DNA of 44,751 nt, taken from positions 1 to 44,751 of IMG/VR virus record IMGVR_UViG_3300045988_055685; one strand, given 5' to 3'. This document shows, piece after piece, positions 2,793-44,751 of this stretch (positions are counted from its first letter, which is position 1; each line of letters begins with the position of its first letter). Both the position numbers and the translations under genes were made by a program. The notes beneath the pieces are model-generated. The model made no database searches. It worked only from the letters and a program-made list of their open reading frames with translations, and was not told the origin of the DNA. Origin of the DNA: a virus.

Positions 2793-2944
2793 TTCGCACC
2801 TGCCTTTTTCGCTTCTTCTAATTCGTCAAATAATTCGAAGAGGTCGTACATCGCAACGCTGGTCGGTGAGCCTTGCGCGCGCAGCGCTTTCAAATCTTCT
2901 CGTAAAAATTCAATATCAGCTTCTATTTCTTTTATAGCTCTCAT
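2789..2944 (-). CDS. Hypothetical small coiled-coil protein (51 aa)
   Basis: Self-translated [55 protein letters not shown] start/stop overlaps at both ends indicate translational coupling. Confidence 0.5.
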
Positions 2945-3561
2945 TCCACGCCTCCGATGATCTCGTCCAGCTTGACGGTTTCGCCGGGGCGGAGCGAGGG
3001 GAACAACCCAGAATCAAGAAAATAATCCTCAACATCTTCGCTTGTCAGGAACAAGTGAGTCACACATCCATCTTTTTTTCTTACTATATCGGTATACTCT
3101 GACATAATACGCCGTATCGCCTTAGCGTCCTCCACCTCCTGCTCCGTCCAACGGGGCTTGCGGATGATGCAGTCGGGATGATTGATGGCATAGCAGAGTG
3201 TCTCTACACACGTGTTATAGATTTTCCCTTTTTCATCAATTCTGCAATAAGTGGATTTTCGAACCGGCGTTTCGATTGTAAAAACTTCATCCACATCAAC
3301 CCCCAGCACCTCGCAAATTCTTGGCTTGCCCATGTTGGTTTCCTCCTTTTTCTCTGCTTGGGGAATATGGTCATCCTCCACCACCTCATAGCCCATCAGG
3401 CGGGCGGCTTCGTGGGGATGGGATTTTCTGAAATCAACACAACACTCTTTAGCAGGTGATTCTTGATTCATTGGGCATTCACAGCAATGTCTGCCCTTAC
3501 AAAATCGCAATTGCGCTTGCCCGTCTGTCAACACTTCCCCCGTCTTACTCCGAAACTTCAT
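2941..3561 (-). CDS. Hypothetical protein
   Basis: ORF-track 2941..3576, with the start re-picked at MKFRSK behind the GAGGAGG RBS. Confidence 0.6.
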   Translation of the reverse strand: MKFRSKTGEVLTDGQAQLRFCKGRHCCECPMNQESPAKECCVDFRKSHPHEAARLMGYEVVEDDHIPQAEKKEETNMGKPRICEVLGVDVDEVFTIETPVRKSTYCRIDEKGKIYNTCVETLCYAINHPDCIIRKPRWTEQEVEDAKAIRRIMSEYTDIVRKKDGCVTHLFLTSEDVEDYFLDSGLFPSLRPGETVKLDEIIGGVE

Positions 3562-3718
3562 GCTCGACCTCCTCAAATTTTACTGTACCGCATTTTGGGC
3601 AGATATACAGATTTTTGTGCGCTTCTACTGTGTGTATATTTCTCATCATGCCAGACGGGACGAAGTTTTTATATTGTTCAAATGGCCTGTCTTGCTCGTA
3701 TCCACAGATGCACTTCAT
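3545..3718 (-). CDS. Small zinc-ribbon-like protein
   Basis: MKCICG...CPKCG gives two Cys pairs. RBS is GGAGGA, with an ATGA overlap to the upstream ORF. Confidence 0.5.
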   Translation of the reverse strand: MKCICGYEQDRPFEQYKNFVPSGMMRNIHTVEAHKNLYICPKCGTVKFEEVEHEVSE

Positions 3719-3975
3719 TTCAACATCCTCCATGCTTCTGCTATTGCGTTTATTGCGTCTCGTTCTGCCTCTGCCGGCTCCGGCACAGGCAGGTTATTTT
3801 CTACCCTGATAAGCGTATCCAGCGATGCTACTACATCTGCGGGCGGTTCTTCCCGACCGCACTCATAGCCGCTGAGCTGTGCTGTGCCAAGCCGCATAAT
3901 CAGCGCCATATCATACAGCAGCATGTCGTGCCGGAGGCGGTATGCGCGCGCCTTGCGCCCGAAGTCAGTCGGCAT
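3715..3975 (-). CDS. Hypothetical protein (86 aa)
   Basis: Internal start MPTDFG behind GGAGGA. The upstream part of track ORF 3715..4167 overlaps the neighbouring real gene. Confidence 0.45.
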   Translation of the reverse strand: MPTDFGRKARAYRLRHDMLLYDMALIMRLGTAQLSGYECGREEPPADVVASLDTLIRVENNLPVPEPAEAERDAINAIAEAWRMLK

Positions 3976-4261
3976 CCTGCTCGTCCTCCTTTCTCTGCCC
4001 TCGGCTGCAAAAATCATTTTCCCGAACACATGCAACCGCCCATTTACATCCGCCGAGCCGTTGCAAATCGTTAATGTTATCTCCTGCATAACCTCCTGAT
4101 GGCTTCCAGCACCTGCATTCCTGGCACCTGACCACAGGCACGGTGTCGATAGTGGGGGCTTCATCAATATACTGGTCTACTGTTTCCTTGATATATGTAG
4201 GGGCATCTGATATGCCAAAATTGATCGCGTCTTTCAACGCATCCAAATCACCCAGCCTCAT
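3965..4261 (-). CDS. Cys-rich small protein, paralog family member 1
   Basis: MRLGDLDALKDAINFGISDAPTYIKETVDQYIDEAPTIDTVP... followed by a Cys-rich tail. RBS is GGAGGA. It shares its N-terminal motif with 5811..6062. Confidence 0.6.
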   Translation of the reverse strand: MRLGDLDALKDAINFGISDAPTYIKETVDQYIDEAPTIDTVPVVRCQECRCWKPSGGYAGDNINDLQRLGGCKWAVACVRENDFCSRGQRKEDEQDAD

Positions 4262-4568
4262 GCTCGTCCTCCTTGTCCATGCGAGCGCCGTAAGAACAAA
4301 AGTCGTTATCCGTTTCCCATGTATGCTGTTCTCCACAGTCACAACGATAAAACATAGCGCATTCCTCACGCCCACGCCAAACGCAATCCTTGCAGCGTAC
4401 CACCTCCGCAACGTCGGCAGCGGAGATATCCTCTACCCCATAACTAATTTCACGCAAGCATTCCTGAACAGCGCCGTGTGCTTCGTAGTCGAACATAGAC
4501 CCGAAATCAACTGGATTGATTTTTTCCAGCAGATTCAAGACAGTCGCCCTCTCGATGTACTCCTTCAT
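4248..4568 (-). CDS. Cys-rich small protein, related architecture (paralog family member 2)
   Basis: MKEYIERATVLNLLEKINPVDF...VVRCKDCVWRGREECAMFYRCDCGEQHTWETDNDFCSYG. The C-terminal NDFCS(Y/R)G motif is shared with 3965..4261. Confidence 0.6.
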   Translation of the reverse strand: MKEYIERATVLNLLEKINPVDFGSMFDYEAHGAVQECLREISYGVEDISAADVAEVVRCKDCVWRGREECAMFYRCDCGEQHTWETDNDFCSYGARMDKEDEHEAG

Positions 4569-7591: not shown

Positions 7592-8399
7592 CCGCGCCCC
7601 TCCTTGCCTCAAGCTGCTGCTTCACCCGATCGCGCCACTGCGTTTCCCATTCTGACAACTGCTGGCCGGATATCCCCTGCGCTGCGGGCTTCTTGCCGTT
7701 CTCAATCCTGTCCCAGACGATCCCGCGCCAGTTGTTTGCCATGCTCAGGCGTATCACATCGCACACCGCCCGTTCTCCGTGCGCCCCGATCTGGTTCTCT
7801 ATCTCCGCAAGCAGGCTTTTCAGGCCGACCGGCTTATACGCCTCGCGGCGCTCCTGCTTGTACGCCAGCCATTCACGGACAGTTTCGGCAACAGGCTCCG
7901 AAAAGCGTTCGGAGAGTTCGGGCGCGCCCTCTTTCTTAGCTTTCTTGCTTTCTTCTCTTTCTTTTCTTTCTTTCATTGTTGCCCTTTGAGTGCCCTCGGT
8001 CTGCCCGCTGTCTGTCCTCGGTCTGTCCTCGGTCTGCCCTTGGTCTGCCATTTGTTTGCCCTCGGTCTGCCCTTGGGTTGCCCCGTCCGATTGATACCGT
8101 TCGTATTCGTTGACGGTGATAACGGTCATGTGCCGGTTGCTCCAAACAGCGATCTCTCCGGTTTTTTTTAGCCGGTCCAGGCTCGTCCGCACCTCTTTCA
8201 CACTAAGGCCGGTCTGCTCTGCCAAACCGGCAAGAGAGGCTGCGATCTGGCCGCGCTCTATCGTCTTTTCACCTATATCGCGCGGCTCATAGTTCGCATT
8301 CAGCAAAAGGTTAATCCAAAGCAGGAGGGTTTTCGGCTCTTTGTACCACCGCCAATTCGCAAGCGAACGGTGCAGCTTTATGTAACCGTTTTCCAGCAC
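7584..8399 (-). CDS. Phage replisome organizer / replication initiator (N-terminal wHTH, DnaD-like C-terminal region)
   Basis: MLENGYIKLHRSLANWRWYKEPKTLLLWINLLLNANY... is the remembered replisome-organizer N-terminal signature. The central GQTE repeat linker is encoded by DNA iterons. Confidence 0.7.
   Translation of the reverse strand: MLENGYIKLHRSLANWRWYKEPKTLLLWINLLLNANYEPRDIGEKTIERGQIAASLAGLAEQTGLSVKEVRTSLDRLKKTGEIAVWSNRHMTVITVNEYERYQSDGATQGQTEGKQMADQGQTEDRPRTDSGQTEGTQRATMKERKEREESKKAKKEGAPELSERFSEPVAETVREWLAYKQERREAYKPVGLKSLLAEIENQIGAHGERAVCDVIRLSMANNWRGIVWDRIENGKKPAAQGISGQQLSEWETQWRDRVKQQLEARRGAGG
7990..8085. repeat. Iteron array (CCTYGGTCTG, ~11-bp phasing, 5-6 copies) inside the replisome organizer gene; candidate ori
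   Basis: Copies at 7994-8003, 8016-8025, 8027-8036, 8038-8047, 8060-8069, and degenerate 8071-8080. They are preceded by a ~50-bp pyrimidine tract (7925-7975). Confidence 0.55.
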
Positions 8400-16490: not shown

Positions 16491-16691
16491 ATGACCGAAC
16501 CACGCATGATCGTAATATGCTCCAAATGCGGAACGCCCTGCCATACTCTCGGATACGATAAAGCTACCTGCTCATTCAAATACGACTACTCCAAGCCTTG
16601 CGGAAAATGCGGCGCTGCCGATTGGGTAGCGCATGAGGTCGGGCGAAACTGGAAAACCGGACTTTGGGAGAAAACAGAGAGGCACATTTGA
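16491..16691 (+). CDS. Small zinc-ribbon protein
   Basis: CSKCGTPC...CGKCG. Confidence 0.55.
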   Translation: MTEPRMIVICSKCGTPCHTLGYDKATCSFKYDYSKPCGKCGAADWVAHEVGRNWKTGLWEKTERHI

Positions 16692-16716
16692 CAAATAAAC
16701 ATAGAGCGGTTATAAT
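16688..16716 (+). promoter_or_regulatory. Consensus promoter of module-1 sRNA
   Basis: TTGACA (16688-93), 17 nt, TATAAT (16711-16). Confidence 0.65.
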
Positions 16717-16722
16717 AGACAT

Positions 16723-16818
16723 AGAAAAAGGGCGCAGCCGGTTGACGGTTATTCCCAAAGATTTAAGTCAGAAAATGACCGCTATCATTTGGACGTGAGG
16801 GCGGTCATTTTCTTTTGC
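16723..16818 (+). ncRNA. Candidate ~90-nt sRNA (module 1)
   Basis: 5' arm, then hairpin GAAAATGACCGC / GCGGTCATTTTC (16771-82 / 16801-12) with loop TATCATTTGGACGTGAGG, then TTTTCTTTT. Confidence 0.5.
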
Positions 16819-16891
16819 ATATCTGAACAATCAGACCAGCAAATGCCACAAGCAACATGAGAAGCTGAAAAAGCTCCGAGTATGTAACCAT
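16805..16891 (-). CDS. 28-aa hydrophobic peptide, Hol-Tox-like (candidate type I toxin)
   Basis: RBS GGGGAGGTGG. MVTYSELFQLLMLLVAFAGLIVQICKRK. The stop lies inside the hairpin stem. Confidence 0.5.
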   Translation of the reverse strand: MVTYSELFQLLMLLVAFAGLIVQICKRK

Positions 16892-17068
16892 AGCACCACC
16901 TCCCCTTTATGGGTTCGGTGGGAATAACCGCCAACCGCTGGCACGGCTGCGCCTTATCCACAGGATAACACAACAGCTTACAAAATACAAGAAAAATCCC
17001 GCCCCTGCGCTACCAACACAGAGACGGGATATGAGGGTAGAAACATTTGACCGATGCTCTACCCTCTT

Positions 17069-22565: not shown

Positions 22566-22582
22566 ATGATTCACCTCAATTT

Positions 22583-22618
22583 CAAAACAAAAAGCCCCAC
22601 CTTGACACAGGCGGGGCT
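22583..22618 (-). terminator. Intrinsic terminator between module 2 and the endolysin RBS
   Basis: Minus strand reads AAGCCCCGCCTGTGTCAAGGTGGGGCTTTTTGTTTT. Confidence 0.6.
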
Positions 22619-22629
22619 TGTGGTATAAT
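22602..22629 (+). promoter_or_regulatory. Consensus promoter of module-2 sRNA
   Basis: TTGACA (22602-07), 16 nt, TGgTATAAT (TATAAT at 22624-29). Confidence 0.65.
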
Positions 22630-22635
22630 ATGAAC

Positions 22636-22720
22636 ATAAAGAGGCGCTGTCGGCAGACGGCTGACCCAATTACACAGTTAAAGTAACCGCTTCATTTGGT
22701 CGTGAGGGCGGTTACTTTGC
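22636..22720 (+). ncRNA. Candidate sRNA (module 2); may read through to the plus-strand terminator at 22884-22906
   Basis: 5' arm GAGGCGCTGTCGGCAGACGGCTGACCC, then the conserved-loop hairpin. The T-run after the hairpin is weak. Confidence 0.45.
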
Positions 22721-22786
22721 ATATGTAACAAAAATGTGTAACAAGATTGCTGCACATATTGAAATCCTTGCGAATCTCAAGCCCAT
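22712..22786 (-). CDS. 24-aa hydrophobic peptide (candidate type I toxin)
   Basis: RBS GGGGTGGTG. MGLRFARISICAAILLHIFVTYAK. The stop lies inside the hairpin stem. Confidence 0.4.
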   Translation of the reverse strand: MGLRFARISICAAILLHIFVTYAK

Positions 22787-22850
22787 ATGCACCACCCCTT
22801 TCTCAAGGAGTGATCAACCGCCCGCCGCTGGGAACGACAGCGCCCGACAT

Positions 22851-22880
22851 ATTATACCATCGCACGCCGCGCTATGTCAA
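22851..22880 (-). promoter_or_regulatory. Promoter of module-2 peptide mRNA
   Basis: TTGACA (22880-75), 18 nt, TGgTATAAT (TATAAT at 22856-51). Confidence 0.55.
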
Positions 22881-22883
22881 TTT

Positions 22884-22906
22884 GCCGCCTTTGGGCGGCT
22901 TTTTTA
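22884..22906 (+). terminator. Plus-strand-oriented terminator overlapping the holin stop codon
   Basis: GCCGCC tttg GGCGGC TTTTTTATTT. Confidence 0.55.
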
Positions 22907-23167
22907 TTTCTGTCCGAGCTGTTTGACAATCTGGTTTACACCCGTCGCCGCAAGGCCGGACACAATGCCGATTGCAATTGCCGTCAGCGGGTCGTTTGCG
23001 CCATACTCCGGCATAATCCGCATCGCTGCAATTCCCAGTACCGCGCCAGAAATGCCGCAGATGATCGGCAGCCACTTGTTGTCAAGCGCCGTAGCCTTTA
23101 CGATCTGTGCGATCAGATAGCAAATTACCGTGATTGCCGGAATCGCCGTAAATCCCAAACTTTCCAT
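22904..23167 (-). CDS. Holin (3 predicted TM segments)
   Basis: MESLGFTAIPAITVICYLIAQIV...WLPIICGISGAVLGIAA...AIAIGIVSGLAATGV. RBS is AAAGGAGCG. It lies between XhlA and the endolysin. Confidence 0.7.
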   Translation of the reverse strand: MESLGFTAIPAITVICYLIAQIVKATALDNKWLPIICGISGAVLGIAAMRIMPEYGANDPLTAIAIGIVSGLAATGVNQIVKQLGQK

Positions 23168-23180
23168 AAGTACGCTCCTT

Positions 23181-23498
23181 TCAAAGTCCAATTCTTGCAA
23201 GCAGGAATGCGATTACTGCCGCCAGAACTGCCCATACCGACTTGTCCACAATGCTTTCCCACCGTCTTGCGGGCTTGCTTGTAACCTCCGCGACGGTAGC
23301 GGTCAGGCTGTCCAGTTTCTCAATAATGGTGTTATACCGTTCTTCCTGTACCGCGCTGTCCTGCTCCAATGCGCGGATACGGTCAAAGAACTCCTTGTGC
23401 GTGTCGCTCGCCCTGTCCATCCGCTTTTCCAGCGCTTCCACGCGGGCAAGCGTGATGCACTCGTGCGGATTGTTTGTGCATTGGTTTTCCATAGGCAA
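23181..23498 (-). CDS. XhlA-family lysis-associated membrane protein
   Basis: Coiled coil (LEKRMDRASDTHKEFFDRIRALEQ...) plus a C-terminal TM (VWAVLAAVIAFLLARIGL). Confidence 0.65.
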   Translation of the reverse strand: MPMENQCTNNPHECITLARVEALEKRMDRASDTHKEFFDRIRALEQDSAVQEERYNTIIEKLDSLTATVAEVTSKPARRWESIVDKSVWAVLAAVIAFLLARIGL

Positions 23499-31797: not shown

Positions 31798-32177
31798 GTC
31801 CTCTGTGGTGCCATTGCAACAAACTTAACGGAAAGCCCTGTCCAGTAGGTTTCGCTTGCGTTCTTGCGTGTAAGCGTATCTTGTCCGGTTGTTACATACA
31901 TTTCAAATGTGGACATGCCCTGACCATATGGTAAAACGGCCATATGGCTGTCAACCGGAGCGGAAAGCACTTCATACAGACTGTCATAGTCTGAATAGTG
32001 GCCAATCTTTGGGTATATTTGCAATTCATAGTTATAGAATGTACCTGTAATATCTCGCGTCATTCGGCCAGACGTAAGGCGGCCTGCATTTTTACCATCC
32101 AGTATATCAAAGCTGCGCTTTACGCCACCGGCGGGAACGAGTACGTCATACTCCACATTGTCAACTGTCAAGATCAT
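31794..32177 (-). CDS. Putative distal tail protein (short Dit-like)
   Basis: Called by position only, immediately downstream of the tape measure gene. Confidence 0.4.
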   Translation of the reverse strand: MILTVDNVEYDVLVPAGGVKRSFDILDGKNAGRLTSGRMTRDITGTFYNYELQIYPKIGHYSDYDSLYEVLSAPVDSHMAVLPYGQGMSTFEMYVTTGQDTLTRKNASETYWTGLSVKFVAMAPQRT

Positions 32178-34984
32178 AGCGCACCCCCTGTAACAAGATT
32201 CATCCCTCTGCGGCGCGTTTCGGATGAATTATAGTTTCCGGTAATGCGCGCGAATTTCTGACCATCAATGTACAGATCGATAGGCGCGCTTCCATTCGCT
32301 CCACCGCGCTCTGCCAGAACTTCGGCAAGCGCTTGTTTGATCGTTGAAAGCGGCGCTTCAATATTTGTTCCTGCTTTTTGGTCGCCCAGAACGGCAAGGA
32401 ACTCATTATTCGGGCTGATTACCGCGCCGGATGCGAGATGGGGGAGATTATCAAGGTTCGGCATTCCACGCAATGACTGGCGAGCCATATTAGCCGATGC
32501 ACGACTATTTGCACTGCTTGTTGCGGCAGTTACCATTGCGATACCACCTACAATCGCGCCTGCCACCAACAACGCGCCTACTGCGCCCTTGACCGCATGT
32601 AATGTAACAGCTAATGTCGCCGCCGCCACTGCGGCCAATCCCATAATCGCTATCGCTTTTTCCAGTGTACTCATATTATTCCATGCGGCCGCAACCTGAA
32701 CAATTAAACCTATTAATACGCCTACCATGACTTTAGTCGCTGTCAAATTATACAACAATCTTGCAACAGTTCCGGCCAAAGTGAGAACATCGCCTATAAC
32801 CTTTTCCAGCGCCCAAGCCGCCACAAATCCAATCACAAGGTTTGTTATGGTTTCCAACAGCCCTTCGTGTTCGGACAAGAAGTTAATTACGCCACCCAGT
32901 AAATTGATTAATGTCGGAAGCGCAGATTGAGTAACCCAAGTAAGCAAAGGAAGTATAATATTTTGGTATATTCTTGACAGAACATCACCTATTACGCTTA
33001 CTATGTCCTTGAGTGAAGTCAAGGTAGACGCAACAGCGGAAAGAAGCGGCTCAAAGTTGATGCTTGCCGCCCAAGCCGCAGTCGCTTGCACGATACGGTC
33101 AATTGTACCGACAATGCTATCGATAATTCCAAGAATCGCTTCCCATATCTGAACGCCGTTGTTGTTGGCCTCCCATGCAATTTGAAGCTGTTCCGCTATA
33201 TTGCCGATAGCCGTAGCGGTATTTTGCACGATGGAAAGAATATGCGAGAAAATGGATTGCCCCAATCCCGCTTCATTCCACGCTATCAGGAACGCCTGCC
33301 CTATGGAATTTGCAAAGCTGGCTATCTGCTGCACCATCGTCATGATCGCGCTCAACATAGCCTGTCCGGCATTGCCGTTTTCCCACGCGGCGAGGAACGC
33401 CTGACCAATGGATGCTATGATCTGGATTATGGTATTGAGCAGGTTCATCAGGGTTTGCAGCATTTGTTCGCCGACGTTGTTCTGCTCCCACGCCGCCCTA
33501 AAGGCATTTGCAATAGCGCCTACGATGCCAAGGATGGTTTGAAGCAGGAATTGCAGGTTATTCAGTGTTGCTACGCCCGTGCCATTCGTCCAAATACTCA
33601 TGAACGACTGGCCTATTGCAGAAACCATGCCTTTCAGGGCTTCCAACGCGGCTTTCGCTGAATCAATAGTCGCCTGCCCATATTGCGCCCACGAATCCTG
33701 AAATACTTTCCAGAAGTCGGTCAGCCATTGCGGCATGGGGATTTGTGAATAATCCGTATCAAATTGCGGTTCGCCTGGCTTCGGCTGCTCCTGCTTCTCT
33801 GTGCTATTGCCGAGCTTTTGAATGGTGTCGAAGCTGGCAAGGGCCTTTTCCGCATCCTTTGTCGCCTGCGTCGTCTCTTCCGTCGCCTGTGCCTGCTGAT
33901 GCAGGGCATCCGCATTCTCCTGTGCCTTTTGTGCGGTAGTGCCAAATACAGACGCTACAAACTGCGCCATCTGAGCCGTAACCTGTGCCAAGGCTTTCAT
34001 TAGCATATTGAGCCACGGCAGGATAGTGTCATAGATCGGCTGAAACGCTGTCAGCAGGTTGCTCTTGATCTGGCCGAATGATTTTGCGAAATCCTTATTT
34101 GCAAGCAGCGCCTTTCCCAAATCCTCGGTTAAGGCGGTCAATGCCCTTGATATGATATTGAAAAACAGCGCGCCCGCAACAATGCTGCGGAGACGGACTG
34201 CAACGGCACTTGCCTTTTTGCTGGTCTTATCGAGTGCTTTGGCACTGGATTTCCCAAAAGAACTGATCTTGTTTTTCGCCTTGTCAGCCGCCGCCCCGAT
34301 GCCGCTGCCGAGATTCTTTTTCAGGCTCCCGAAGGTGTTGGCAAGGGCAGTTTTCAGTTTGCCTATAACGCTGTTGTTCTGCCTGATTTTCTCATTTACC
34401 GTATTCGAGAAGTCGGAAAATTCAGCTTTTGACTGTTGCAGCCCCGCGCGCATGTTCTCAAGCTTGACCTGCTCATTGGACAAATTACTCTCAAGATTCT
34501 GCCCAACCGTGCTGTTCCGTGCGCTCTCAACCGTTTCTGCCAGCGTTTGACGAAGCTGCGCGGCTTTTTCATCCGCTTTTCTCAATCCCTCGGCGAGGCG
34601 GTCCGATTCTGCGGTAAGGGCATTCAACCTTTGCGCGGATTCAGAAAACTCTTCCTGCGGGATCGCGCCCACGGCAGCCTGTTTGAGCTTTTCGCTGTAT
34701 TCGGCCTGCGCAGAATATGCTTTTGCGTTTACCTCTTCAAGCTGCTGCGCCAGCTTTTTTGCTTCGGCTTCCGTCGCTTCCAAATCAGACTTCATTTTCA
34801 GCCCGCGCGCGCCGCCGGAGGACACCTTTTCCCATTGCGCGGCAAGCTTCTTGACTTTCTCTGCCTGACGCTCTACGGCGGCAGTCTGCTTCTCAATATC
34901 CTTTGACATTTGGGCAATCTGCTTTTTAGCCTGTTCGTCGCTTACGGTAGCTTCTATTCTGATGGAGCCGTCTGCATTTGCCAT
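32174..34984 (-). CDS. Tail tape measure protein
   Basis: 936 aa. The N-terminus is a coiled coil, the centre has hydrophobic repeats (AFxAAWE.. x several), and it sits in the canonical position. Confidence 0.85.
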   Translation of the reverse strand: MANADGSIRIEATVSDEQAKKQIAQMSKDIEKQTAAVERQAEKVKKLAAQWEKVSSGGARGLKMKSDLEATEAEAKKLAQQLEEVNAKAYSAQAEYSEKLKQAAVGAIPQEEFSESAQRLNALTAESDRLAEGLRKADEKAAQLRQTLAETVESARNSTVGQNLESNLSNEQVKLENMRAGLQQSKAEFSDFSNTVNEKIRQNNSVIGKLKTALANTFGSLKKNLGSGIGAAADKAKNKISSFGKSSAKALDKTSKKASAVAVRLRSIVAGALFFNIISRALTALTEDLGKALLANKDFAKSFGQIKSNLLTAFQPIYDTILPWLNMLMKALAQVTAQMAQFVASVFGTTAQKAQENADALHQQAQATEETTQATKDAEKALASFDTIQKLGNSTEKQEQPKPGEPQFDTDYSQIPMPQWLTDFWKVFQDSWAQYGQATIDSAKAALEALKGMVSAIGQSFMSIWTNGTGVATLNNLQFLLQTILGIVGAIANAFRAAWEQNNVGEQMLQTLMNLLNTIIQIIASIGQAFLAAWENGNAGQAMLSAIMTMVQQIASFANSIGQAFLIAWNEAGLGQSIFSHILSIVQNTATAIGNIAEQLQIAWEANNNGVQIWEAILGIIDSIVGTIDRIVQATAAWAASINFEPLLSAVASTLTSLKDIVSVIGDVLSRIYQNIILPLLTWVTQSALPTLINLLGGVINFLSEHEGLLETITNLVIGFVAAWALEKVIGDVLTLAGTVARLLYNLTATKVMVGVLIGLIVQVAAAWNNMSTLEKAIAIMGLAAVAAATLAVTLHAVKGAVGALLVAGAIVGGIAMVTAATSSANSRASANMARQSLRGMPNLDNLPHLASGAVISPNNEFLAVLGDQKAGTNIEAPLSTIKQALAEVLAERGGANGSAPIDLYIDGQKFARITGNYNSSETRRRGMNLVTGGAL

Positions 34985-35069
34985 TCAATCACCCCTTTCC
35001 TTTAAAAATGGGTATAAGAAAACCACCCTACGATGTGTAAGGTGGTCTATGTGTTGAGTTGTTTCTGCC

Positions 35070-35097
35070 TTGACATTGGCAGCACGCATGATATAAT
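35070..35097 (+). promoter_or_regulatory. Consensus promoter of module-3 sRNA
   Basis: TTGACA (35070-75), 16 nt, TATAAT (35092-97). Confidence 0.65.
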
Positions 35098-35103
35098 ATA
35101 GAT

Positions 35104-35192
35104 ACAAAGGGCGCAGTCGGTAGACGGTTAGCCCCATGAAGCATTAGAAGTAGCCGCTTCATTTGGACGTGAGGGCGGCTACTTCTTTTTAT
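35104..35192 (+). ncRNA. Candidate ~90-nt sRNA (module 3)
   Basis: Arm, then the conserved-loop hairpin, then TTTTTATT. A second plus-strand terminator CCCCC ttat GGGGG TTTTTTT lies at 35309-29. Confidence 0.5.
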
Positions 35193-35250
35193 TGTCTAAA
35201 ATACGCTCGATAAGTACGAGTACAATGACAAGTATTACGAGATATTCCAT
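35179..35250 (-). CDS. 23-aa hydrophobic peptide with KKK tail (candidate type I toxin)
   Basis: RBS GGGGGCGG. MEYLVILVIVLVLIERILDNKKK. The stop lies inside the hairpin stem. Confidence 0.45.
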   Translation of the reverse strand: MEYLVILVIVLVLIERILDNKKK

Positions 35251-35329
35251 ACAACCGCCCCCTTTCAGGGGCAAGACTTAACCGCCTACCGTTGCACGAC
35301 TGCGCCCGCCCCCTTATGGGGGTTTTTTT

Positions 35330-35359
35330 ATTATATCATAGCGCGTTGTCCAGTGTCAA
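35330..35359 (-). promoter_or_regulatory. Promoter of module-3 peptide mRNA
   Basis: TTGACA (35359-54), 18 nt, TATAAT (35335-30). Confidence 0.55.
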
Positions 35360-35390
35360 TTTATAAGGTTTTTTGCAAACGAAACAGAAA

Positions 35391-35954
35391 TTACCCATCA
35401 AACTGCGCCCAAAACGCTTCTACTGCCTCTTTTTCTTCATCAGAAAGCGCAGGCGCGGGGGTCAGATTCCGCTTCAACCGTTCATAATCATGCTTTTGCT
35501 TGCCCTTCATTTTGCTGGTATCAGTACCCCGTATCTGTATGGCATGCGATAGTGCGCTGCTTTCATCAAGGCTATCTATCATTGCCATAAACTCGAACCA
35601 GTGCAGCTTGGTTTTATGCAATTCGATTCCAAACGTTTGTCTGAATGATGAATACAGCCGCGCTGCGTCAAAATCGAACCACATAAGGCGCTTGCCGCCG
35701 CTTTCCATCTCCTTTTCCTCTCCGCAGCGCATGAACCATGTCATGCCGGCAAGCGCAGTTTCAAGCGGAGGCATGCTTTTCCCATAGAGGAGGCACAACG
35801 CAACCCATATCCGATCTTCTTCTGATAGATTGGGGTCGTCCAGAACGAGGGATATCTGGATGCCGATACGGTAATCCGTCCGGATCAGATATCCCTCATA
35901 ATCCTCTGGAAGCCGGTCAAGCAGCATGTTATACACTGCCGACACGCTCCGCAC
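35391..35954 (-). CDS. Bacteriophage Gp15 family protein (tail assembly chaperone region)
   Basis: DFDAARLYSSFRQTFGIELHKTKLHWFEFMAMIDSL...IQIRG matches the remembered Gp15 pattern. The start is uncertain (GTG 35954 or a later ATG). Confidence 0.7.
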   Translation of the reverse strand: MRSVSAVYNMLLDRLPEDYEGYLIRTDYRIGIQISLVLDDPNLSEEDRIWVALCLLYGKSMPPLETALAGMTWFMRCGEEKEMESGGKRLMWFDFDAARLYSSFRQTFGIELHKTKLHWFEFMAMIDSLDESSALSHAIQIRGTDTSKMKGKQKHDYERLKRNLTPAPALSDEEKEAVEAFWAQFDG

Positions 35955-44607: not shown

Positions 44608-44751
44608 TTATCCAAGGCTTGCAATTATGTCGCGCTCCCTATCGGATAGCATCCACCTATGCGCCGCAGCGCGTTCAGCCGCAGCGCGTTCGGCAGCCGC
44701 ATGTTCAGCCGCAGCGCGTTCGGCAGCCGCATGTTCAGCCGCAGCGCGTTC
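44608..44751 (-). CDS. C-terminal end of the methyltransferase gene that starts at 798 (wraps around the contig junction)
   Basis: The frame gives ...AAAERAAAEHAAAERAAAHRWMLSDRERDIIASLG, with stop TAA at 44610-44608. The codon phase matches the 1-798 segment when 87 nt are treated as overlap (44,664 is divisible by 3). Confidence 0.65.
   Translation of the reverse strand, partial: ERAAAEHAAAERAAAEHAAAERAAAERAAAHRWMLSDRERDIIASLG
44665..44751. repeat. 87-nt terminal direct repeat identical to 1-87
   Basis: Base-by-base comparison of both ends. Confidence 0.95.

Follow-up and report, generated by a model that had tools for sequence, protein, structure and literature searches.

A small accessory cassette with a putative type I toxin–antitoxin pair, inserted among the tail genes of a gut Clostridia phage

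How does an insert with promoters of its own come to stand at a junction that spans only 25 nt in distant relatives, and what does it encode? The question is posed by IMG/VR record IMGVR_UViG_3300045988_055685, analysed here over its full 44,751 nt (positions 1 to 44,751; the window). The window is the complete genome of a temperate siphovirus, a gut-Clostridia phage; the genome ends repeat each other, and annotation of its open reading frames (ORFs) gives a CI-like repressor, an integrase, a holin and an endolysin. The insert, module 3, is the third of three paralogous copies and lies between the gene for Gp15 (35391-35954, minus strand) and a 936-aa ORF in the tape-measure position (32174-34984, minus strand). 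A first examination from the letters alone (the sequence-only reading) had named the neighbours as the tail chaperone Gp15 and the tape measure, and had considered the insert atypical for so tightly coupled a pair. It had proposed a toxin–antitoxin (TA) function, with an origin as a miniature inverted-repeat transposable element (MITE) as an alternative or an addition. Gp15 was confirmed by PF06854 (E 9e-27), whereas the tape measure is called only from size and position, a family search with the 936-aa ORF having returned no significant match. The insert is indeed atypical: the distant Gp15 relatives (42% amino acid identity) have the 25-nt spacing, and the near-identical phage L055 lacks the cassette.

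Judged from sequence, module 3 is probably an accessory cassette (a "moron") that spans about 370 bp, is self-contained and carries a type I TA-like gene pair. What points to this reading is the combination of a very small, hydrophobic peptide that ends in a basic tail, a Shine–Dalgarno sequence that is sequestered, and a convergent cis-antisense small RNA (sRNA) with a strong promoter of its own. The assignment follows from an RNA scaffold shared with related modules and from the anatomy of the locus, and not from toxin homology. Type I TA systems are hard to detect by homology. Work on them in Clostridia has essentially been confined to C. difficile (PMC6563280).

Anatomy of module 3

Comparison of filled with empty sites (L055 against L054, L057 and the window) places the cassette at about 35014-35385, its ends being approximate. 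Two convergent promoters lie within it. The sRNA promoter on the plus strand (TTGACA-16-TATAAT, 35070-35097) and the peptide promoter on the minus strand (TTGACA-18-TATAAT, 35330-35359) each match the consensus at 12/12 positions and have a TG upstream of the -10 box. The peptide promoter is kept in all relatives that bear module 3. Across the 44.7-kb genome there are five perfect TTGACA-N16-18-TATAAT sites, where shuffles lead one to expect 0.01, and all of them fall inside the three modules (16688-16716, 22602-22629, 22851-22880, 35070-35097 and 35330-35359). The only module promoter outside this set, that on the peptide side of module 1, appears weak by eye (TTGTAT-17-TATCCT), which fits an antitoxin made in excess over its toxin.

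The predicted sRNA of about 90 nt (35104-35194, plus strand, with ends placed by the positions of promoter and terminator) consists of an A-rich leader, a 5' hairpin (SL1), an AU-rich linker, a second hairpin (SL2) and a U-tract. SL1 is the left arm of an inverted repeat, 27 nt at 35109-35135 (GGGCGCAGTCGGTAGACGGTTAGCCCC), and is unique in the window at up to three mismatches. SL2, the central hairpin (35146-35186), is followed by TTTTTATT / UUUUUAUU; it is predicted to act as the sRNA terminator on the plus strand and as a weaker terminator on the minus strand, and its apical loop contains UUUGG. The sRNA folds at -36.5 kcal/mol (z -3.7). Part of the arm (AGTCGGTAGA) recalls a D-arm, but a tRNA-like nature was rejected, as ARAGORN and Rfam found no tRNA there. 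A retron-like reading, with inverted repeats round a structured RNA, was likewise set aside, the ORFs flanking all three modules being other genes.

The peptide ORF on the minus strand (35179-35250, MEYLVILVIVLVLIERILDNKKK) has 23 codons and a stop. Its product is a hydrophobic helix with a mean Kyte–Doolittle value of 3.05 over the core and a KKK tail. In RNA folds the Shine–Dalgarno sequence GGGGGC is held in a local hairpin, CCCC-UGAAA-GGGG(G), at 35257-35271. Next to it is the right arm (35268-35307, minus strand), the imperfect inverted partner of the left arm and the 5' arm of the peptide mRNA. Further out, a terminator scan detected the hairpin CCCCC-TTAT-GGGGG followed by seven T residues (35309-35329, CCCCCTTATGGGGG). 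On the plus strand this is an intrinsic terminator that points out of the cassette toward Gp15, and on the minus strand it folds as the 5'-terminal hairpin of the peptide mRNA. It is confined to the lineage of module 3, the other modules with the same class of peptide (class B, below) having no counterpart. The sequence-only reading had located both promoters, the arm, the central hairpin, the peptide and this extra plus-strand terminator in just these places.

On the opposite side, a minus-strand hairpin at 35014-35045 (CCACCUUAC-ACAUC-GUAGGGUGG, then UUUUCUUAU) is a predicted terminator and ends 30 nt upstream of the tape-measure start codon. The simple terminator scan lists neither this hairpin (35045-35014) nor SL2; both calls are based on RNAfold and conservation. 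Module 3 is accordingly flanked on both sides by terminators that block outward transcription, on the plus strand at 35309-35329 and on the minus strand at 35045-35014, the latter predicted. Module 2 is flanked likewise, and there the scan lists both terminators (22619->22592, minus; 22884-22899, plus).

The minus-strand terminator of module 2 overlaps the -35 box of its sRNA promoter; the box is flanked by GCCCCACC...GGCGGGGC, which double as the terminator. In module 3 the -35 box of the sRNA promoter forms the centre of an inverted repeat, CTGCC-N8-GGCAG (35066-35083), which relatives L001 and L010 keep only in part. Such a repeat could be an operator or a mere hairpin.

Taken together, the locus holds a small (<60 aa) hydrophobic peptide ORF that evolves as coding sequence and, at the sequence level, an antisense sRNA gene with its own promoter and terminator that overlaps the putative toxin gene. 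The TA-like reading put forward from the letters alone is thereby supported, since small hydrophobic peptide and convergent antisense RNA each have their own promoter. From the minus strand, the consensus promoter would give an mRNA for a 23-residue membrane peptide with its Shine–Dalgarno sequence locked in the local hairpin. From the plus strand, the convergent consensus promoter would give the sRNA of about 90 nt, ending at the SL2 terminator. The two transcripts would overlap at their 3' ends and have at least SL2, the stop codon and the last Lys codons in common.

A structured RNA family with three peptide classes

Searched with a covariance model of the plus-strand RNA, the window yields exactly three copies (16718-16819, 22630-22726 and 35097-35193). 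They score 91-98 bits (96.3 for module 3), and nothing else rises above noise. Each has inverted repeats, so the three copies with inverted arms of the sequence-only reading stand. Module 1 (~16688-16990) has a repressor-side gene on one side and the integrase gene on the other; module 2 (~22602-22880) is placed between the holin and endolysin genes. The copies are only about 69% identical, and homology among modules reaches both promoters in every case.

Probing with the arm and the hairpin, as had been suggested with the sequence-only reading, detected many further copies in phages and genomes of Oscillospirales. A 20-nt probe from the hairpin apex matched 12 viral and 26 genome loci in public collections, with Agathobaculum, Butyricicoccus, Anaerotruncus, Anaeromassilibacillus and Oscillospiraceae among the named hosts; one of the 26, from a Deltaproteobacterium, is a chance match. 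A probe from the left arm alone added about 25 viral modules with a different hairpin apex, which shows that the family is not an artefact of the apex probe. The covariance model, built from 30 modules, gave 66 copies in 56 sources, again phages and genomes of Oscillospirales, and 56 of the 66 are distinct in sequence. Tandem arrays occur, with three copies in L018 and two each in L004, L009, L016, L020, L075 and L106.

The L018 array spans 2888-4355 and, from translations read by eye, apparently lies between integrase-like and XRE-like repressor genes. In L031, an sRNA-like copy with neither peptide ORF nor U-tract (2030-2130) stands directly upstream of a complete module and is possibly an orphan or decaying antitoxin. 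Other copies were seen among apparent housekeeping genes: in L017 (Butyricicoccus pullicaecorum DSM 23266, ~2897-3100) among RimO-, PgsA- and RecA-like ORFs, and in L027 (Anaeromassilibacillus senegalensis, ~4087-4300) near an MnmA-like ORF, both assigned by eye. The family is therefore not confined to prophages, and its chromosomal and integrase/repressor contexts fit the known distribution of type I TA loci.

Throughout the family the plus strand keeps the order of strong promoter, A-rich leader, SL1, AU-rich linker, SL2 and U-tract. In SL1 an outer helix, GGGN/NCCC, and an inner one, NCCG/CGGN, are capped by a loop of 5 nt. In a MAFFT alignment 91% of the cells are paired, compared with 39-56% when the partners are slid. 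In the model-fitted alignment of the 56 distinct sequences, which is biased toward the model, the figure is 93% compared with 39-55%; its covariation score of 0.314 (0.173 in shuffles) was reached by 0 of 500 shuffles. Compensatory change was found in 12 pairs, including all four apical pairs of SL2, and extends to the SL2 lower stem. SL1 is rich in wobble pairs, both G·U and U·G; one position, for example, has G·U 35 times. These pairs exist on the plus strand only, which marks SL1 as an RNA element of the plus transcript. Among the modules found through SL1, the SL2 loop retains UUGG or UGGG while the stem below it changes. We take UUGG to be a YUNR-type loop; such loops are linked with rapid antisense recognition. 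The RNA family is real.

It is also absent from Rfam. At the gathering thresholds of Rfam 15, neither the window as a whole nor any module matched a family through these RNAs, the best sub-threshold scores being 22.3 bits for ctRNA_pT181 (cut-off 56), 22.1 for ctRNA_p42d (50) and 14.7 for BsrG (55). A blastn search of the module against 50,697 GenBank phages gave no match, and the peptide and hairpin strings were not found in full-text literature. The outcome is a covariation-supported candidate sRNA family of about 60 loci in Oscillospirales that are abundant in the human gut (Agathobaculum, Butyricicoccus, Anaerotruncus and others) and in their temperate phages.

A minus-strand ORF of 22-33 codons is present in 36 of the 37 modules that are not cut by a contig end. 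It is preceded by a GGAGG or GGGGG Shine–Dalgarno sequence 6-9 nt upstream, and its start is nearly always ATG. In most modules the Shine–Dalgarno sequence folds into a local hairpin, which is formed by differing sequences. Substitutions between related ORFs fall at third, first and second codon positions 89, 48 and 18 times, respectively, which indicates that the ORFs evolve as coding sequence. The stop codon occupies an identical offset within the SL2 stem (36/37 complete modules), and the U-tract of the sRNA terminator is complementary to the C-terminal Lys/Arg codons (for example, AAAAAGAAGTAG and CTACTTCTTTTT). At 35179-35194, and at the equivalent positions of all modules, the tail codons and stop are the reverse complement of the lower stem and U-tract of the sRNA. 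This double use of bases may explain both the fixed stop and the basic tail.

One RNA scaffold thus accompanies three peptide classes: class A (MVTYSEL...KRK, the module 1 type), class B (ME[YH]L...KKK, the module 3 type) and class C (MG[ILM]K...INAK/TYAK, the module 2 type). Class A peptides resemble, in sequence, the "Hol-Tox" type I toxins of the TxpA/SprG kind. Three of the 11 class A members matched Hol_Tox (PF16935) with a best E of 2.4e-4, although the one score shown, 15.9 bits, is below the gathering cut-off of 23.3 bits. The class A profile also matches the 31-aa PDB chain 7ns1_A (MITISTMLQFGLFLIALIGLVIK..., E 0.022), presumably the short SprG1 toxin peptide of S. aureus. The remaining weak Pfam and NCBIfam matches of the peptides are to generic transmembrane or sorting-signal models only. 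Peptides of 22-33 aa are mostly below the length cut-offs typical of gene callers, and large protein collections are therefore unlikely to list those of 23-28 aa; the peptides may aid prophage stability or phage defence in the gut.

The similarity of class A to a "holin-like toxin" family raises another possibility. The peptides could be accessory products of lysis or late growth (holin-like, antiholin-like or exclusion peptides), made from late read-through transcripts under antisense control rather than as addiction or defence toxins. In modules 2 and 3 the ORF runs in the direction of the late genes, and module 2 sits between holin and endolysin. Module 1, however, lies in the lysogeny region in an orientation opposite to that of its neighbours. 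Some family members are chromosomal and non-phage and others stand in tandem beside integrase or repressor genes (translations read by eye), while the cassettes have strong promoters of their own and terminators on both sides. Such promoters and insulation fit expression in the lysogen, independent of late transcription. A lysis or late-growth peptide is therefore regarded as unlikely.

The inverted arms and a predicted 5'–3' clamp

In all three window copies, imperfect inverted repeats of 20-40 nt enclose about 130-160 nt. Since the arms are inverted repeats, the 5' ends of the sRNA and of the peptide mRNA share one sequence rather than being complementary. Read on the minus strand, the right arm is a same-sense near-copy of the left arm with a conserved extra 7-9 nt; in module 3 it has a 7-nt insertion and a further 6-nt insertion. 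The longer arm is on the ORF-start side in every aligned module (about 30).

This geometry bears on a par/Fst-type module, in which a bidirectional terminator is shared and the antitoxin blocks translation by means of repeats in the 5' region of the toxin mRNA. Convergent transcription, a shared terminator hairpin, the UUGG (YUNR-like) loop of SL2 and repeats near both 5' ends are all compatible with it, and we take the peptide tail ...LIERILDNKKK to recall the Fst sequence, if loosely. Nevertheless, the inverted repeats give both RNAs the same sequence. Duplexes between the sRNA 5' end and the mRNA 5' untranslated region (UTR) averaged -29.1 kcal/mol for cognate and -29.0 kcal/mol for non-cognate pairs, so par-like 5'-5' pairing was rejected. 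The peptide had no match in Pfam, Fst-type models included, and the RNA none in Rfam. A par/Fst-type module is thus very improbable.

The arms do match each other in a different way. They co-vary across deep divergence (GGGATACCG/GGTATATCG in L016 and GGAACACC/GGAACACT in L035), and L026 has GTGGCACTAC in both. The arm–arm duplex has a mean of -44.3 kcal/mol for cognate arms compared with -33.5 kcal/mol for non-cognate ones, and in 30 of 31 modules the toxin-strand duplex is the more stable. A U-rich run (UUUGUAUCUAU / CCCUUUGUAUCU in module 3, CCCUUUUUCUAUG in module 1) comes after the complement of SL1 on the minus strand. The U-tract on the minus-strand side of SL2 is poor in module 3 (UUCUAAUG). 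A modelled read-through mRNA, 35323->35096, folds with its arms clamped at -103.6 kcal/mol (z -8.2). From the arm pairing, the arm differences, which are mostly G·U-compatible on the toxin strand, the U-rich run past the SL1 complement and the poor U-tract of SL2, we infer read-through and a 5'–3' clamp; the folds suggest such a clamp in the read-through toxin mRNA.

A mechanism can be proposed for module 3 as a type I TA-like pair. The peptide mRNA would partly read through the weak minus side of SL2, so that its 3' UTR would carry the complement of the whole sRNA. The SL1 complement would then pair with the mRNA's own 5' arm, and the resulting clamp would stabilize or silence the mRNA. The sRNA would be both a perfect complement of the mRNA 3' UTR and, in its 5' part, the same as the mRNA 5' arm. 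It would probably dock through the UUGG loop of SL2, displace the clamp and form a long duplex. By analogy with RatA/txpA and SR4/bsrG, this duplex might lead to decay (PMC6563280). The biological role might be prophage maintenance or defence. Such a mechanism, in which the sRNA would imitate the 5' end of the mRNA and so open the clamp, can be tested.

A number of points weigh against this reading of module 3 or parts of it. The class B peptide (7 sequences) had no match in Pfam at E values up to 10, none in NCBIfam and none in the PDB, and its profile has no similarity to the TxpA-like profile of class A. A permissive Rfam search with modules 1 and 3 assigned no family. Transcript ends are derived from promoters and terminators only. 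The arm differences comprise 64 that are G·U-compatible on the minus (toxin) strand, 9 on the plus (sRNA) strand and 25 transversions, but up to about 30 of the 64 come from a single fixed position, GACGG against GGCGG, and the counts are not independent, as the sequences are related. In folds of the read-through mRNA the Shine–Dalgarno hairpin is predicted with or without the clamp, so the clamp has no obvious control of translation. Its effect would, on these models, be on mRNA stability or access rather than directly on translation. Finally, strong terminators are predicted on the late-gene strand directly before the tape-measure gene and the endolysin gene, and late transcription would be stopped there as well; antitermination, at a guess, might let it pass.

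An inverton, in which the arms would be recombination sites and flipping of the inner segment would swap the promoter that drives the peptide, was considered as well. Inverted repeats do flank a segment of about 130 nt with inward-facing promoters outside it. No invertase gene was seen beside modules 2 and 3, where only some of the neighbouring ORFs are annotated. The constant placement of the longer arm at the ORF start, the G·U asymmetry and the covariation are not expected of recombination sites, and an inverton is highly improbable.

Insertion site, mobility and comparison with known systems

Phages with 96-98% identical Gp15 show four states at the Gp15/tape-measure junction. The window, L053, L056 and viral loci L039-L044 have the cassette only. 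L054 has a T5orf172/MUG113 gene, a remnant of the Rha C-terminus and the cassette, L057 a Rha gene and the cassette, and L055 the T5orf172 gene and Rha remnant at an empty site. The T5orf172/MUG113 (GIY-YIG-like) and Rha-family regulator genes were assigned by Pfam. In metagenome relatives L054, L055, L057 and L061 the junction (equivalent to window positions 34985-35390) is a hot spot for accessory genes, and the T5orf172 and Rha genes there are each followed by a similar terminator hairpin.

Comparison of L055 with L054 and L057 shows that the insert starts at ATTTGCAAAAAACCTCATAAA, just outside the peptide promoter. At its far end, immediately ahead of the ribosome-binding site of the tape-measure gene, a terminator hairpin, CCACCTT...AGGGTGGTTTTC, occurs for the second time. 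Both ends thus lie outside the promoters, about 50-95 nt beyond the arms, and show neither terminal inverted repeats nor inverted similarity. The terminator at 35014-35045 in filled sites is this second copy, the first being the one at the end of the preceding cassette. A check on related phages for empty sites and target-site duplications, suggested with the sequence-only reading, therefore yielded an empty site (L055) and no duplication: the sole flanking repeat is the terminator hairpin of about 28 nt, and its copies differ in their loops (GTTTCTTGC and ACACATCGT).

A MITE-like or IS-derived element, with the arms as terminal inverted repeats recognized by a transposase and the promoters and peptide as cargo or incidental, is hardly credible: imperfect inverted repeats flank the inner segment in 3/3 copies, there are several copies per genome, tandem copies elsewhere and presence/absence polymorphism, but the insert ends fall outside the arms with no inverted similarity or clean target duplication, which refutes it, and homology always extends to both promoters, the copies are not near-identical, the arms have a conserved length difference and strand-specific G·U patterns typical of RNA, and no transposase is associated.

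The mobility that the sequence-only reading had suspected survives in a looser sense. The sequence comparisons support a moving unit that is a promoter-to-terminator cassette exchanged at a hot spot, probably by recombination at short conserved boundary or terminator sequences. Module 3, as a TA-like cassette, occupies a hot spot between Gp15 and the tape-measure gene, bracketed by outward-blocking terminators. It is an independent unit, present or absent between conserved neighbours in close relatives, as expected of a phage moron. With other morons it has in common its own promoters, flanking terminators, presence or absence among near-identical phages and a place between late-operon genes. 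It differs from the usual ones in that its cargo is an RNA-regulated toxin-like pair and not a single protein gene. We know of few morons described between tail-assembly genes. TA-like cassettes are thus shuffled into hot spots even within tail and lysis operons.

Among known type I systems, TxpA/RatA and BsrG/SR4 (skin and SPbeta prophages of Bacillus subtilis) and SprG1/SprF1 (Staphylococcus aureus) are the most similar. Like the module, they have a hydrophobic, basic-tailed peptide and a cis-encoded convergent sRNA that overlaps the toxin 3' end, and they are borne by prophages or islands, often several per element. Toxins of the TxpA family are annotated as "holin-like toxins" and their antitoxins overlap the 3' UTR (Fozo 2010, PMC2887945). 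In B. subtilis and C. difficile it is common for prophages to have several type I TA modules (PMC6563280). Module 3 differs in its class B peptide, which has no similarity to that group, and its sRNA differs from RatA and SR4 in having no Rfam match, the BsrG model being far below threshold. The peptides of the family are shorter, with 22-33 aa compared with 38-59 aa for BsrG and TxpA, and RatA and SR4 are two to three times longer than the sRNA of about 90 nt. To our knowledge, same-sense 5' hairpins and a 5'–3' clamp have not been described for the TxpA, BsrG and SprG systems.

The par locus of pAD1 (Fst/RNA I-RNA II) has a similar layout, with convergent transcription, a shared bidirectional terminator and repeats near both 5' ends; in both, a U-turn-type motif in the terminator loop is the likely first contact. 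Its repeats are direct, its RNAs are complementary at their 5' ends and its antitoxin blocks translation, whereas the repeats of the module are inverted and give both RNAs the same sequence. Cognate-specific 5'-5' pairing and a Pfam match for the peptide were not found. In hok/sok (plasmid R1) and AapA1/IsoA1 (Helicobacter pylori) there is a long-distance 5'–3' lock and a sequestered Shine–Dalgarno sequence, as predicted here. In those systems the antitoxin pairs with the toxin 5' region and activation needs 3' trimming. The module differs from both in that its sRNA is antisense to the 3' end and its hosts are Gram-positive, and it has no sequence relationship to them.

The general logic of a small membrane toxin, a cis-antisense RNA and a prophage location is already well known; the sRNA family lies outside Rfam, and the peptide class of module 3 is unclassified. 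It is tempting, if rather doubtful, to go further and propose that these modules form a new superfamily of type I TA cassettes, defined by its RNA, in gut Oscillospirales and the phages of these bacteria. One antitoxin scaffold (SL1, linker and SL2 with a U-turn loop) would serve at least three unrelated toxin classes, and the sRNA 5' hairpin would mimic the toxin mRNA 5' end, compete for the mRNA 3' arm and open a protective 5'–3' clamp rather than block the ribosome site directly. Were this so, terminator-bracketed cassettes co-oriented with late genes in late operons would couple toxin release to the lytic or lysogenic state.

Several minor features of the genome were noted in passing. In the region of module 2 (22582-22905) the holin gene lies on one side (22904-23200, minus strand) and the endolysin gene on the other; by eye, the true start of the endolysin is probably a TTG near 22571 and not the listed ATG at 22637. 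The window ends (1-147 and 44635-44751) share 87 identical nt, which points to a genome that is circularly closed or terminally redundant, and are built of a 15/30-nt periodic repeat (CGCAGCGCGTTCAGC / GGCAGCCGCATGTTCAGC). A DUF3800-VIII RNA motif (RF03075) was found on the minus strand at 1307-1372 with 57.7 bits, above its gathering score, close to a tRNA-Gly(TCC) gene at 1710-1784, also on the minus strand. At 7980-8083 about nine copies of an 11-nt unit (TGCCCTCGGTC-like) are arranged head to tail; these repeats may be iteron-like and possibly mark a replication origin in or beside an early gene.

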